Shown here one piece after another: positions 20,341-26,300 of a DNA stretch of 64,000 nucleotides (positions within the stretch are counted from its first letter, which is position 1; the number at the start of each line of letters is the position of its first letter). This stretch comes from Escherichia coli (GTDB lineage Bacteria; Pseudomonadota; Gammaproteobacteria; Enterobacterales; Enterobacteriaceae): NCBI RefSeq assembly GCF_001677475.2, contig NZ_CP012498.1. One strand, given 5' to 3'. Made by a program: the position numbers.

Positions 20341-23300
20341 TGATAAAGCAGTCTAGGAAATCGTCTGCATCCCCATAACGGTCAAACATCGTGGCGTTGA
20401 CAACATCTCTCATACACGCTCGTAAGCGGCCCTCACGGTCCGCTAACGCGGAGATACGCCCCGACTGCGGGAAACCCTTGTCGGGACCACTCCGACCGCG
20501 CACAGAAGCTCTGTCATGGCTGAAAGTAGGTATGGCTTTGCAGGATGGAGATGGGTAAGGTGAAATCTGTCAATCAGTACCGGCTTACGCCGGGCTTCGG
20601 CGGTTTTATTTCTGTGCCATATGAAACAACGGAGTGCCGCCTTACATGCCGCTGACGCGGCATCTGTTACTCGTCAATACGTTTGTCATTACATCTGTTC
20701 GCATTGATGACGAAATGTTATATAAGTGATTACTGCAGGGAAACAAGAGCGACATAACGTTTATAATATCGCCAGTAACGAATGAAATAATAGGGGCAGC
20801 TTGACGTATAGTAAATTAAAAAAACAAGTGATACCGCTGTCCGCGACTTACATGACTCTGTTTTATCTGTCACAAACTGGCTTTTATTAGCATTAAAAAT
20901 TATAACTCTTTAACAGCGAATCAATATCTTCTCGCACTTTTAGGTTATTAATTCGAAGCACTGCGACTTCTAACTGAGATATATGGCTTTTGATCTGTTC
21001 CAGCTCTTTTATCTTTCTTTCATTTTCTCTGTAAATTTCAAGCAAATACTTTAGTTTATCTTCTCGCATTACTTTCTTGCTCTGTCACTAGAATTTTAAT
21101 CGTCGTAAAATATAAGGTCATTATTAAAATATTCTGACCATATAATATAAAGCGTTGTTTTTTAGTATGATTTTCTTAGCACCAGTACATATAATATAGA
21201 GGGAATCAGAATAAAGATTCCCTCTATGATTTTAATAACATCCAGCACAGGCAGGATTACAACAAAGTTCACAGCAGTAAAATGTGTTATTCATATTTTC
21301 TGATTTTTTTCCACTGTTGTTTTTTACAACATTACACTTTTTAGTGTCTAATGTAATTTTCTCTTTTGAAGAGTCAACTGATTCAGCTTTCTGGCTAAAA
21401 GAGGGGAAAGATAATACAGAAATAAAAATTGCCAACATTAGCTTTTTCATGTTACCTCCCGTCATGTTGTTTCACGGATATTTGAGATTAGTTAAACGGT
21501 CTTTGCAATTTTTTTATTTTTTTGTGAGTTGCATCATGTTATATATCGAGGTGTACTCGCTTTTTTATATTATTTTTATAGTGTTATATATGTTAATTGA
21601 CTGGTCGTCTGGATTTTTTTACTATTAATATCATGTTAAGTAATGGTTTTATACTTTTCTTGTTCATCGACAGGAATTTAAAACCCCAAAAGATTAAAAA
21701 ACACCAGAAAGCGAATTCCCGGGCGACATGTCTCGCGCCTTATCTTATTTATATTGTCGATTAAACAGGATGGATTGATTGCTTCAAAGTATCTCTGATG
21801 TTTTTTTGCTCCATTTCCCTGAAAATGGACGCAACTTCCCCTCTGCCGCCTCTCAGCCGCACCACTTCATACGGGCCAGCGGCTCATCTCTGCCAGTAAC
21901 CAGCGGTTGTGGAACACCAGAGACCAGTACTGGTAGGGAAGCGTGAACACTATATGCTGCCACGGGCAGTCGGGGACCAGACTCAGCAGATACTGTATCC
22001 GCTGTGCACCTGCTTTCACCCCGCAGTGTGGGCAGGAGCGGCTTTTACACCGGAAACAGACCTTCTTTGTATGGCAACAGTCCGGTGATGAACAACACCA
22101 CTGCGTGTAGCCCATCAGGGTAGTCCCGCACGCCATGATTTTTGTCACCGACTCAATCACCACCGGACGCACTGAACCTTCCAGTTGTTTCTCCAGCCAG
22201 TTAAACCAGCGGTTTCCCTGCTGAAAAATGTCGGCAAAACGGGGAAAGCATCAGAAGGGTATGAGACGACAATAACTCAGTCCGCCTGGCGCCGATTATT
22301 CTGGCCGGTTTTGTAACCTGAGTGTCATTTACATGATCCAACAGGAAATGGCGTGACGCTCAATACTTCTCAGGTCAGTTACTATATGACTCAGCGTAAG
22401 AAAGGTATAACTCAGCATATCTCGGCCATGAAGGCTGGTATCTCAGTCCGTTCTGGTCGTCGGATCGAAAAAGGAGAGTGGGCAAAAAACAGTGTTCGGC
22501 ACTGGCGCACACGCAAAGATCCTCTGGAAGCTGTGTGGGACAGCATGCTTGTTCCTCTGTTGAAAGAGAGGCCGGCTCTGACACCAACAACTCTACTGGA
22601 GATGCTACAGGATAAATATCCCGGCCAGTACCCCAACAGCCTTCGAAGAACAATGCAACGGCGGGTTCGCGAATGGAAACTACAGTATGGTACAGAGCAG
22701 GAGGTCATGTTCCGCCAGCAACATCAGCCCGGCCTGCGAGGCCTGTCGGACTTTACTGAACTGAAAGGTGTAGTTGTCACCATCGCCGGTAAGTTGTTGG
22801 CGCATAAGTTGTATCACTTCCGTCTGGAATGGAGCCACTGGAGCTGGATGCGGGTTGTTCTGGGTGGTGAGAGCTTCTCTGCTCTGGCTGAAGGCCTGCA
22901 GGAAGCCCTCGGACAACTGGGCGGAGTGCCGGTAGAACATAAAACGGACAGCCTGAGGGCAGCATGGAAACAACAGGGCGAAGATGGACGCCGCGAGCTG
23001 ACTGAGCGTTATGCTACTCTCTGTCAGCACTACGGAATGCAGGGCGTACACAATAATGCCGGTCGGGGCCACGAAAATGGCTCGGTTGAAAGTGCCCACG
23101 GACATCTGAAAAGGCGTATCTGTCAGGCGCTGATACTGCGGGGCAGTAACGACTTCAGCACCATAGAAGAATATCAGGCCTTCATCACTCAGCAGGTTAT
23201 GCGGCACAACCGTAACAATCAGGATCTGGTCAAGGAAGAACGTCTTCATCTGAAACCGCTGCCGCTTCGTCGCAGTGCTGACTATGATGAGCTGACTGTG

Positions 23301-26300
23301 AGGGTTAGTCGCAGCAGTACCATCAATGTGAAGCACGTCGTCTACAGCGTACCTTCCCGGCTTGTAGGTCAACTGTTACGGGTCAGGTTATGGGACGATC
23401 GTCTGAGCTGTTACGTTGGCAGCAGCGAGGTCATGAGCTGCCCTCGCGTCAGACCAGAAAAAGGGAAGACGCGGGCCCGTCGTATCGACTTCCGACATGT
23501 GATCGACAGTCTGGCAAAAAAGCCCGGTGCGTTCTGCCATGCAACGCTGAGAAATGACATCCTGCCGGACGATGAATGGCGGAGGCTGTGGCGTCGCTTA
23601 TGTAATCATCTGGAGCCCGATATGGCAGGAAGGCTGATGGTACATGCCCTGAAACTGGCTGCAGGATACGACGATATCTCAGTCGTGGCAAAAGGTATGG
23701 AGCAGATGCTGAATACCCCGGGAAACGTGGATCTGCACCGGCTGATGCGCTTCCTGGGTATAAAAGAAAAGGCGTTGCCGGTAGTCAATGTGATACAGCA
23801 TAACCTGAGCAGTTATGAGCAACTACTGCGTGGCAAGGGAGGTTCGCAGTGAGCAATATCCATCACCTTGAACATAGCCTGCGTAAACTACGCCTGACAC
23901 GAGTTGGAGCTGAATGGCACGCTCTGGAAAAACGAGCGCTGGCAGAAGGCTGGACACCATCGCGCTATCTTCTGACGCTATGCAATGAAGAACTCCTGTG
24001 GCGCGAGAGTGAAAAACTGCGTCGTTATAAAAAGGAGGCCCGGTTGCCAGTTGCCAAAACGCTGAGCGAATACGACTTCAGTCAGGTGCCGGAACTGAAT
24101 GGAGCTCAGTTCCGGCAACTCTGTGAAACGACAGACTGGGTTGATGCAGGAGAAAACGTTCTGCTGTTCGGAGCCAGCGGGTTGGGGAAAAGCCATCTGG
24201 CGGCAGCGATCGTGGATGGCGTAGTAGGTCAGGGCTACCGGGCCCGGTTCTACAGCGCAGGAGAGCTGTTGCAGGAACTACGTAAAGCCAGAGCTCAGTT
24301 GAAACTGAATGAGCTGCTACTGAAACTGGATCGCTACCGGGTGATAGTGGTGGATGATCTTGGCTATGTCAAACGCGATAGTGCCGAAACGGGTGTGCTG
24401 TTCGAGTTAATAGCGCATCGCTATGAACGTGGGAGCCTGGTGATAACCAGTAACCATCCGTTCAGCATGTGGGGCAGCATCTTCGTGGATGAGACTATGG
24501 CGGTGGCTGCGGCAGACAGGCTGATCCATCACGGATATATGTTCGAACTGAAAGGGGAAAGCTACAGGAAAAAGACAGCGAAGGCAGTAACAAGCGCGAC
24601 TTGATGTCGCCCTGAAGGGTGCGGCCAGTATAGTTGGCGCGAGTCGGCAAAACTAGTTGACGTCTAATAGAAGGGCGGGGTGACTCCGTCTGACCAGTGA
24701 ACCATGCCACACTCCGGGCAGTACATGCCGCCGGCGCTGATACCGGCAAAAATGGTTGCAAATTCCCGCTCCGTGCAGCGGGCTATTTCCGGATACCCTT
24801 CGTCATCAACACGTACAAACCAGAAGACCAGCTTTTTGTTTCCCGCATCCACAAAGAACGGAATACCCAGGTCAGCGCAGCACTCAACGGCATCGTCAAA
24901 ATTATCAAAGCGCAGAACTTCTGTGTCTTCTTCGTCAAAGAAGTCATCGTCGTGAAGCTTCACGACATAGCGGGGAAGTTTGCTTCTTTGAAGAGCGGGT
25001 TTTCGTTTACGAGGTTTAGCTGAACGGGACATATAACTACCTGAAAGACAATGACATTATCTGTTTTTATAACGGTAATTTCAGGTCATGACAAGCCGCA
25101 GCCGCCAGGCGGCCTACTCGATGGGGTTCACGGGGTTCCGACAGTGGAGCAGGGAAAATGGCTGCGTTACGTCATTGAGTATATCCAGGACTGGCCGACA
25201 AACCGGGTACGTGATCTGTTACCCTGGAAAATTTAGCTGACCACTCAGTAAATATAATTCGGTTCTGGTGCTGGTGAGCTGCTTACGAATGGAAAACAAA
25301 TTTATCTACCTATTAAGAATGCAGGTTCTTATTTAAATGTGATGGAGGTTGTCAGCTTATCTTCAAAATCGGTGTTACTAAAACGGGAGTGGCCATAGAT
25401 TATGTTTTTCGGGTAAACTCCGGTTACCGTCCTGAATCACCAGCACTGACAATGGTGTGAGAGCGGGCGTTTGTCACTATTATTTATAAGTCAGTAAGCC
25501 AGAAAAAACATTGGCAAGTGGGGACGTTAAGAAGAAATAACTTCGCAGATGTTTGTATAACGTGAAAATGTTGCACGCAACGTATTAAATCAGCCGTACT
25601 TCGCCTCAATGTTCAGGGTAAGATTTATGTTCAGTGCGGCAGATATACAAATGAACTCAGCTTTAAGGTTTCAGCTCACAAATCTCAGTATTTGATATTG
25701 TATCTTGTTGAAAATCTTTTACTAAATGTAAATAATAAGGAAATATTATTCTGACTGAATCATTCCTTACCCCCTCTGTATGCTCTCAGAGGGATTTTTT
25801 TATTTCCGGAATGAATAATAAAATGAAGATGCGACTCCGGTACCACCATTTACATCATTACCCCTGACATACAGTGGCGGAATCGCATTAATATCATGTT
25901 ACATGTTTTTTATGCCCAGAATAATGGGGGAAGCTTCTGTTGCGAAATAATAGGCAAATCATGTCTTCTGGTGTTTGTTTTTTAACTTATTGTCTTACTT
26001 GTGCTTTGCTTATAGTGCCTGATAACTCTTCGGTTTGTTGTGAGTATAAAAAACCCCTGGTAACACAGGGGTAAGAGAACAAATGAATGCTCAGTTTATG
26101 TTGCACTTTAAACTAATGGAACTATAGAGGAGGTTGTTACATTTCCACTTATAAATCACCCACTCCTTTTTTGCAATAGATTAATATTAATTGTAAAATT
26201 TTTGTGATGTTGATCAGGGTATTTTTAGTTATTTATTGACCATGGACTCTGCCATAGTTTCTGCGTATCAACTGATAAGAAATAAGCTTTTGTTTTGAGT

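Follow-up and report, generated by a model that had tools for sequence, protein, structure and literature searches.

Origin of the 122-aa ORF and its surroundings

The window (the 64-kb stretch of plasmid DNA analysed as a whole) contains, between positions 21666 and 25120/1, a 122-aa ORF, remnants of a transposase gene, and an insertion sequence of another family. The question is whether these pieces belong to one mobile element and, if so, whether that element can still move. The segment, referred to below as copy 1, is almost certainly a decayed copy of IS91 (rolling-circle, HUH/Y2 transposase family) that has been split by an intact ISEc10 on a pCFSAN004179G-like STEC/ETEC virulence plasmid of the IncF type. 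A second derivative (copy 2) and several smaller pieces lie in the same window (Table 1).

In intact IS91, the promoter Porf121, located within the terIS end, drives orf121 and, via a TGATG stop/start overlap, also tnpA. The transposase TnpA nicks the DNA beside a GTTC/CTTG target at oriIS, a strand is peeled off as far as the CTCG of terIS, and the resulting single-stranded circle is re-inserted. Comprising orf121 and tnpA, IS91 is the prototype of its family (X17114; Mendiola/de la Cruz; Fauconnier et al. 2026). According to Fauconnier et al. (2026; PMC13181058), GTTC and CTTG are the preferred targets, the terminal 82 bp of oriIS are sufficient for transposition, and Orf121 reduces how often IS91 transposes while ensuring that terIS is used accurately for termination. 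When supplied in trans, Orf121 inhibits transposition and cuts one-ended transposition (PMC13181058).

Table 1. Coordinates of IS91-derived and ISEc10 features in the window
Feature	Position	Strand	Remarks
IS91 fragment	17540..17837	-	tnpA start and orf121 codons 39-117
GTTC target tetranucleotide	21662..21665	+	abuts oriIS end of copy 1
Copy 1, IS91 derivative	21666-25120/1	genes on -	oriIS end at 21666, terIS end at 25120/1
oriIS end of copy 1, terminal 82 bp	21666..21747	-	IS91-like in outer ~41 bp only; inner part is unrelated sequence
Divergent oriIS-proximal segment with last tnpA codons	21666..21887	-	73% identity to IS91
tnpA 5' remnant, aa 1-124, zinc-binding domain only	21879..22251	-	frameshifted; deletion of aa ~125-384 starts at 21879
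Left direct repeat AGAAGGG	22253-22259		duplication proper most likely GAAGGG, 22254-22259
ISEc10 (IS21 family), intact, 2410 bp	22260..24669	+	istA 22353-23852, istB 23849-24604
orf121 of copy 1, now 122 aa	24664-25032	-	native 121 codons, then TAT (Tyr) and TAG (stop) from ISEc10 end
Right direct repeat AGAAGGG	24669-24675		24669 most likely last IS base
terIS end of copy 1	25033..25121	-	Porf121 -10 box TATAAA 25071-25066, palindrome GCCGCCAGGCGGC 25101-25113, CTCG 25117-25120
Inverted IS91-family fragment	27973..28365	+	tnpA 3' end and oriIS end, CTCA-flanked
Isolated terIS end of IS91 copy	37862..37987	-
Copy 2, IS91 derivative with both ends	43679..44594	-	intact orf121, in-frame tnpA deletion

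Relation to IS91

As the IS91 reference, positions 3527/3531-5359 of L003 were used, an intact element of ~1829-1833 bp that carries the PGAP name 'IS91-like element IS91 family transposase' and stands in as a proxy for canonical X17114. The segments retained in copies 1 and 2 share ~91% DNA identity with this proxy, and homology to IS91 stops exactly at the GTTC/ATCGA... and ...CTCG(A) boundaries in 4 independent contexts. The assignment to the IS91 family made in the first-pass annotation thus stands, and all features described there are present, none of them more than 1-2 bp from where it had been placed.

The anatomy of copy 1 can be read directly. Like IS91, it has the order terIS-Porf121-orf121-TGATG-tnpA-oriIS, which bears out the earlier comparison with an Orf121 plus TnpA layout, and it shares the CTCG site with its palindrome, the GTTC target, and an Orf121 of 121 native residues with the same motif positions. 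In contrast to IS91, its tnpA has lost the Y2 domain, carries a frameshift, and has ISEc10 between it and orf121, and the inner half of its oriIS is replaced. An IS91 isoform is defined by at least 95% identity to IS91 V1 (X17114; PMC13181058). At ~91%, measured against the PGAP-named proxy, both relics fall below this threshold, and copy 1 is therefore regarded as a diverged relic rather than an active isoform. Judging from their sequences, copies 1 and 2 are IS91-derived by descent and are not functional members of IS91.

Element ends

The oriIS end of copy 1 lies at 21666, as originally annotated, with GTTC directly before it (GTTC followed by ATCGACAGGAATTTAAA..., starting at 21662-21666). 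The same tetranucleotide adjoins copy 2 and the intact IS91 of L003. The bases past terIS (ATGG) differ from the left flank, i.e. there is no target duplication. The other end had been set at 25122 and is moved slightly, to 25120/1, directly at the CTCG. Both the subterminal palindrome GCCGCCAGGCGGC and the 5'-CTCG cleavage site that IS91 requires are present there, and the copy 1 terIS matches that of L003 at 84 of 89 positions. As for oriIS, the number of positions identical to L003 is 59 out of 82 in copy 1 and 70 out of 82 in copy 2. Because only 59/82 of the minimal oriIS are conserved, the function of the copy 1 oriIS is doubtful.

At an identity of at least 90%, the oriIS-proximal variant of copy 1 is present in just 10 E. 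coli records, and it is limited to a handful of STa plasmids. Its origin might be explained by a chimera, in which terIS, orf121, and the 5' part of tnpA derive from IS91 proper and the oriIS-proximal part from another member of the IS91 family that is unsampled, the two having been joined via recombination or aborted rolling-circle events. Identity to IS91 indeed falls from ~91% on one side of the deletion joint to 73% on the other, the stretch from ~21707 to 21775 does not align to four other IS91-type ends, and three IS91 lineages of unequal divergence coexist in the window. However, copies 1 and 2 have exactly the same outermost ~41 bp of oriIS and the same GTTC flank, and a search of 5,426 complete E. 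coli genomes returned no full-length IS91-family element with this segment, the best match outside STa plasmids having ~76% identity. A chimeric origin is thus put forward tentatively and seems rather unlikely. Under either a chimera or a deletion, copy 1 is still an IS91-family relic with equal consequences.

The orf121 gene

As previously annotated, a 122-aa ORF with a CPECG motif lies upstream of IS91-type transposase remnants, and its counterpart is found in copy 2. Compared with the ORFs that precede intact IS91 tnpA genes, it shows 95-99% identity, and the source records name such homologues 'IS91 orf2'. In uninterrupted copies Orf121 is exactly 121 aa long. All published positions of the protein (PMC13181058) are found in the ORF, namely V49-X5-L55-X5-V61, V61-X6-L68-X6-V75, and C105-X2-C108. 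Also in agreement with the published IS91 features (PMC13181058) are the TGATG overlap and two promoter boxes, TATAAA (-10, Porf121) and TTGCCG (-35, PtnpA). Relative to L003, the dN/dS of orf121 is 0.06-0.09.

No family match was obtained for the 122-aa ORF in Pfam and NCBIfam scans. The AlphaFold2 model, built on a 24-sequence alignment, reached a pLDDT of only 66 and a pTM of 0.46, and Foldseek reported no PDB structural match for it below E=0.6; with a model this weak and no such match, no fold can be assigned. The absence of a known family or structural match, together with the label 'hypothetical protein' in most database records, would also suit an unrelated passenger gene that merely sits beside IS91 fragments. 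That reading is contradicted by the location of orf121, which in all intact elements examined is enclosed by the IS91 boundaries and lies between terIS and tnpA, as well as by the overlap of its stop with the tnpA start via TGATG and by the full set of published Orf121 features, so that its probability is negligible.

ISEc10 insertion

The element inside copy 1 had been annotated as an IS21-family member at 22260-24668. The family is confirmed by istA (226 bits versus the NF033546 cut-off of 160) and istB (267 bits versus the NF038214 cut-off of 200), while the right end shifts to 24669, giving 2410 bp. Identity to annotated ISEc10 copies is 99.8% over ~2410 bp. The terminal inverted repeats are imperfect (TATGAGACG / TATTAGACG), with 26 of 40 positions matching. 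In common with other ISEc10 copies, this one has the same termini, intact istA and istB, and a duplication of 6-7 bp; the one feature peculiar to this plasmid is where it inserted, at the junction of orf121 and tnpA in an IS91 relic.

The repeat AGAAGGG, previously described as a 7-bp duplication, is indeed present on both flanks, but its length is most likely overestimated by one base. In L006, which has an independent copy of ISEc10, the A that follows ...CTAAT is part of the IS. Because L006 assigns this terminal A to ISEc10, the element is taken as 22260-24669 and the duplication as GAAGGG (6 bp), with the match at a seventh base most likely coincidental. Target duplications of other ISEc10 copies are 6-7 bp.

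The empty site is observed directly in two plasmids, pCFSAN004179G (NZ_CP012501.1) and NZ_CP144927.1, which contain AGAAGGG once and whose flanks overlap by exactly 7 bp. The insertion therefore lies, as first proposed, exactly at the orf121 stop, i.e. after the last native codon and before the TGATG overlap with tnpA. TGATG is restored beside the duplication in copy 1 and is continuous in the empty-site relatives. The new 3' end of the gene reads ...CCC TTC / TAT TAG, and the two final codons, already described as IS-derived, are traced to the ISEc10 end. The same insertion was not found in the plasmid and E. coli genome collections searched. NZ_AP042571.1 (83% query cover) was considered as a second instance and rejected as an unrelated juxtaposition.

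Transposase damage and mobility

The lesions of tnpA are directly visible. The copy 1 remnant at 21867-22172 (minus strand) matches Pfam Zn_Tnp_IS91 (PF14319; E=1.8e-16, 60 bits versus a cut-off of 26.3) and, partially, NCBIfam transpos_IS91 (E=3e-21). One additional T directly behind the ATG (22251-22249) shifts the reading frame by +1, and an internal deletion of ~780 bp removes the whole Y2 catalytic domain. In intact TnpA, Y2_Tnp (PF04986) spans aa 142-321, and it is absent from both copies: tblastn recovers no more of TnpA than aa 2-124 for copy 1 and, for copy 2, aa 1-38 and 331-394. No intact IS91 TnpA was found by tblastn anywhere in the 64-kb window, which covers part of the plasmid.

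In copy 2, orf121 is intact (121 aa, 44140-44505), the TGATG overlap is preserved, and the tnpA deletion is in frame (43868-44140), leaving a 90-aa product in which aa 1-38 are joined to ~aa 331-394. The internal deletion first attributed to copy 2 is thus real, and copy 1 carries one likewise. The -10 box of copy 2 is of the TATAGC type, versus TATAAA in copy 1.

In copy 1, tnpA is inactivated several times over, by the ~780-bp deletion, the frameshift after the ATG, and the replacement of the inner half of oriIS. According to the order of events that we infer, ISEc10 would have arrived afterwards. Its insertion behind codon 121, ahead of the native orf121 stop, severs the tnpA stub from Porf121, and orf121 now takes its Tyr codon and its TAG stop from the end of the IS. 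With the Y2_Tnp domain missing from both copies, neither is predicted to move by itself, in agreement with the first-pass annotation, which called both non-autonomous. IS91 TnpA made elsewhere could mobilise copy 2 in trans and, with lower probability, copy 1 as well, and Orf121 may be expressed from both.

Retention of orf121

Despite heavy damage to tnpA, all 121 codons of orf121 are free of stops and frameshifts in both copies, ISEc10 inserted without disrupting the coding sequence, and copy 1 retains the Porf121 -10 box. One might suppose that orf121, expressed from Porf121, has been selected in these tnpA-less relics as a trans-acting brake on incoming or resident IS91, which enforces precise termination at terIS and protects the adjacent sta1 and ehx regions. 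Such a role would agree with the inhibition of transposition and the reduction of one-ended transposition by trans-supplied Orf121 (PMC13181058). However, the two relics differ by only 6 synonymous and 7 non-synonymous changes, too few for their dN/dS of ~0.3 to be informative. The -10 box of copy 2 is not TATAAA, and truncated variants of Orf121 are numerous in databases, with a truncated one also in the window itself (17540-17837). Moreover, orf121 is short, and therefore it may have survived by chance. Selection for such a brake is accordingly judged improbable. If true, orf121 would represent an IS regulator that was domesticated and has outlasted its transposase, stabilising the virulence genes sta1 and ehx nearby.

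Plasmid context

An STa enterotoxin gene (sta1) is located directly beside each of the two IS91 relics, and the terIS of copy 2 faces ehxCABD, the enterohaemolysin operon. Association of IS91 with virulence determinants has long been known. The gene astA (EAST1), carried by the reference plasmid, is absent from the window. Plasmids pCFSAN004179G (NZ_CP012501.1) and NZ_CP144927.1 have the same two modules of sta1 and orf121 in the same order, with 98-99% identity, but, unlike the window, have an orf121-tnpA junction that no ISEc10 interrupts. Movement of sta1 and the adjoining IS91-delta as a unit by IS91 was also considered, the right edge of the module being exactly terIS. The left edge, however, lies in the plasmid backbone and has no oriIS, and homologous recombination between IS91 copies explains the module pattern equally well.

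All of this locus is already known, and no new biology is implied. Its value lies mainly in annotation: the 'hypothetical protein' is IS91 orf121, and the pieces around it are relics of IS91 whose oriIS and terIS ends can still be recognised. The locus records the assembly of a STEC/ETEC virulence plasmid, and the positions of the relics by STa and ehx fit the association of IS91 with virulence.

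IS91 relics and their Orf121 gene

According to profile searches, the 101-aa ORF of the ISEc10-split IS91 derivative (copy 1) matches Pfam PF14319 (E=1.8e-16) and NCBIfam transpos_IS91 (E=3e-21), and the 122-aa ORF matched no curated family in Pfam or NCBIfam. The window was compared by local BLAST with an intact element of ~1.83 kb (L003, NZ_CP122870.1, positions 3527/3531-5359; PGAP name "IS91-like element IS91 family transposase"). Immediately upstream of L003 tnpA, and overlapping it, lies an ORF that shares ~91% identity with the window ORF (11 differences over 121 codons), and since dN/dS between the two is 0.06-0.09, the window ORF is a real coding gene. 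Its length is exactly 121 aa in two uninterrupted relatives, NZ_CP012501.1 and NZ_CP144927.1; tblastn over 121/121 residues gives copy 1 95% identity and copy 2, the second derivative, 99%. Database search returned only 231 relatives; where the source names an organism, it is nearly always enterobacterial, and the protein is labelled "IS91 orf2" in some sources.

Features of the window and their coordinates
Feature	Window position	Strand	L003 position	Match
ORF (101 aa), IS91 transposase zinc-binding domain	21867-22172	-
ORF (122 aa) with CPECG	24664-25032	-
TATAAA, Porf121 -10 box	25071-25066
TTGCCG, PtnpA -35 box	24749-24744
TGATG, after the duplication	22253-22249
Copy 1 segment	21662-21887		3527-3753	73% (BLAST)
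Copy 1 segment	21879-22259		4535-4914	92% (BLAST)
Copy 1 segment	24669-25121		4908-5359	91% (BLAST)
Copy 2 segment	43675-44031		3527-3882	86% (BLAST)
Copy 2 segment	44026-44594		4792-5359	92% (BLAST)
Further IS91 fragment	17540-17829			BLAST with L003 IS91
Further IS91 fragment, inverted	27973-28365			BLAST with L003 IS91
Further IS91 fragment	37862-37987			BLAST with L003 IS91
Genes for IS21-family IstA (499 aa) and IstB (251 aa)	between the two minus-strand ORFs	+
sta1, heat-stable enterotoxin	21232-21465	-		PF02048, E=5e-19
sta1, second, identical, STp-type	43243-43476	-
Duplicated sta1 + IS91-delta module	20406-25121 and 42420-44594
ehxC	45697-46212
ehxD	51381-52817
gtdA, gentisate-degradation operon	31283-32308
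LysR regulator, gentisate-degradation operon	28867-29790

Published Orf121 has 121 aa with V49-X5-L55-X5-V61, V61-X6-L68-X6-V75, and C105-X2-C108; the orf121 stop overlaps the tnpA start as TGATG, the Porf121 -10 box (TATAAA) lies within terIS, and the PtnpA -35 box (TTGCCG) inside orf121 (Fauconnier et al. 2026, PMC13181058). All of these features occur in the window at the expected places, and on sequence grounds the 122-aa ORF is IS91 Orf121. Together with the L003 alignment and the PF14319 match, they bear out the first-pass annotation, which had placed this ORF and a Cys-rich remnant in the IS91 family; the IS91 observation is confirmed, and its interpretation is supported with small corrections. 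The elements, the Orf121 regulator, and the mechanism are all already published. Orf121 reduces TnpA-mediated transposition in cis or in trans, and favours accurate terIS cleavage, with less one-ended transposition (PMC13181058); at this locus the mechanism would be the one taken from the IS91 literature. As for structure, the Orf121 model (pLDDT 66) had no match in PDB, and fold assignment failed; conserved C51/C52, C105, C108, and H112 in the alignment are compatible with a small zinc site.

A plus-strand 61-aa ORF (25051-25236) starts within the terIS end, extends past the IS boundary, and corresponds to hypothetical protein WP_077782133.1 in related plasmids; it is probably an annotation artefact.

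Ends, deletions, and mobility

In every context examined, IS91 homology stops at the same two points, reading on the plus strand GTTC/ATCGAYAGGAATT... at oriIS (GTTC, 21662-21665) and ...GCCGCCAGGCGGCCTACTCG(A) at terIS (CTCG, 25117-25120). Both agree with the published ends, namely a GTTC/CTTG target beside oriIS and a subterminal palindrome beside the 5'-CTCG cleavage site at terIS (PMC13181058). The left end earlier placed at 21666 is exact; the right end, placed at 25122, overshoots by 1-2 bp. A weak tblastn match to the IS91 TnpA zinc-binding region (60842-60955, 42% over 38 aa) is probably another, more distant family fragment.

Intact TnpA has 395 aa, with Zn_Tnp_IS91 at aa 17-104 and catalytic Y2_Tnp at aa 142-321. 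Copy 2 has the internal deletion described earlier (aa 1-38 joined in frame to ~aa 331-394, a 90-aa product). A large one that had not been stated affects copy 1, which retains aa 2-124 alone (~780 bp lost) and has an additional T behind ATG (CTTT for CTT), giving a 16-codon frame. No intact IS91-family TnpA was found in the 64-kb window, and the proposal that both copies are non-autonomous holds given these reduced products.

IS91 transposition reportedly requires no more than 89 bp at terIS and 82 bp at oriIS (PMC13181058). Against the intact L003 element, terIS and oriIS identities are 84/89 and 59/82 for copy 1, and 79/89 and 70/82 for copy 2. The inner half of oriIS in copy 1 (~21707-21775) has been replaced by sequence that shows no relation to four other IS91-type ends; this variant is 99% identical in NZ_CP012501.1 and, at >=90% identity, occurs in just 10 E. 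coli records. The same stretch includes GAATTCCCGGG, adjacent EcoRI and SmaI sites. Judged by these ends, copy 2 is a plausible substrate for mobilisation in trans, and copy 1 a doubtful one.

ISEc10 insertion

The IstA and IstB products exceed the curated cut-offs for their IS21 families, and numerous plasmids and chromosomes carry elements annotated ISEc10 that share 99.8% identity with the 2.4-kb insert. The insertion is real, because NZ_CP012501.1 and NZ_CP144927.1 carry a true empty site, in which the flanks join directly, sharing exactly 7 bases, AGAAGGG. This repeat, earlier read as a 7-bp duplication, does flank the insert (22253-22259 and 24669-24675). Four other ISEc10 copies, however, all terminate ...GACGTCTAAT-A, and an independent copy (L006) shows G in its left flank at the position that must be A for a 7-bp duplication. 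This assigns the terminal A to ISEc10, which spans 22260-24669 (2410 bp; inverted ends TATGAGACG / TATTAGACG); the IS21 assignment and start stand, and the end moves from 24668. The duplication proper is most likely 6 bp, GAAGGG, the seventh matching base being most likely coincidental.

On the minus strand, the native junction ...CCC TTC TGATG CTT... now reads ...CCC TTC / TAT TAG ACG...(ISEc10)...CTCATA / CCCTTC TGATG CTTT.... As annotated at first pass, orf121 ends in two IS-derived codons, one Tyr codon (TAT) and a TAG stop. The main tnpA promoter is Porf121 (PMC13181058), from which ISEc10 separates the copy 1 tnpA stub.

Plasmid context

The window corresponds, in reverse complement, to a plasmid that shares 98-99% identity with the IncF plasmid pCFSAN004179G. 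A 1.3-kb inverted repeat (25346-26690 and 38813-40168, 96% identical) encloses a region with the gentisate-degradation operon, and a third copy, partial and diverged, lies at 28457-28829.

Each sta1 sits next to an IS91 relic, ~200 bp beyond its oriIS end, and the duplicated module terminates exactly at terIS CTCG(A). Its left edge is in IncF backbone-like sequence, which in many plasmids likewise occurs ~270 bp away from IS91. In NZ_CP144927.1 (3001-8303), a full-length IS91 follows the same module in head-to-tail orientation, and an IS3-family element interrupts the orf121 of this IS91; at the junction, ...CCTACTTG/ATCGAT, the first terIS site reads CTTG, not CTCG, and acts as target for the second IS91.

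The placement of sta1 and ehx is in line with the established link between IS91 and virulence genes and does not in itself demonstrate IS91 as their mover. As for copy 2, its terIS points at the enterohaemolysin operon ehxCABD (within 44594-52820), and failed termination there (one-ended transposition) would co-mobilise ehxCABD DNA.
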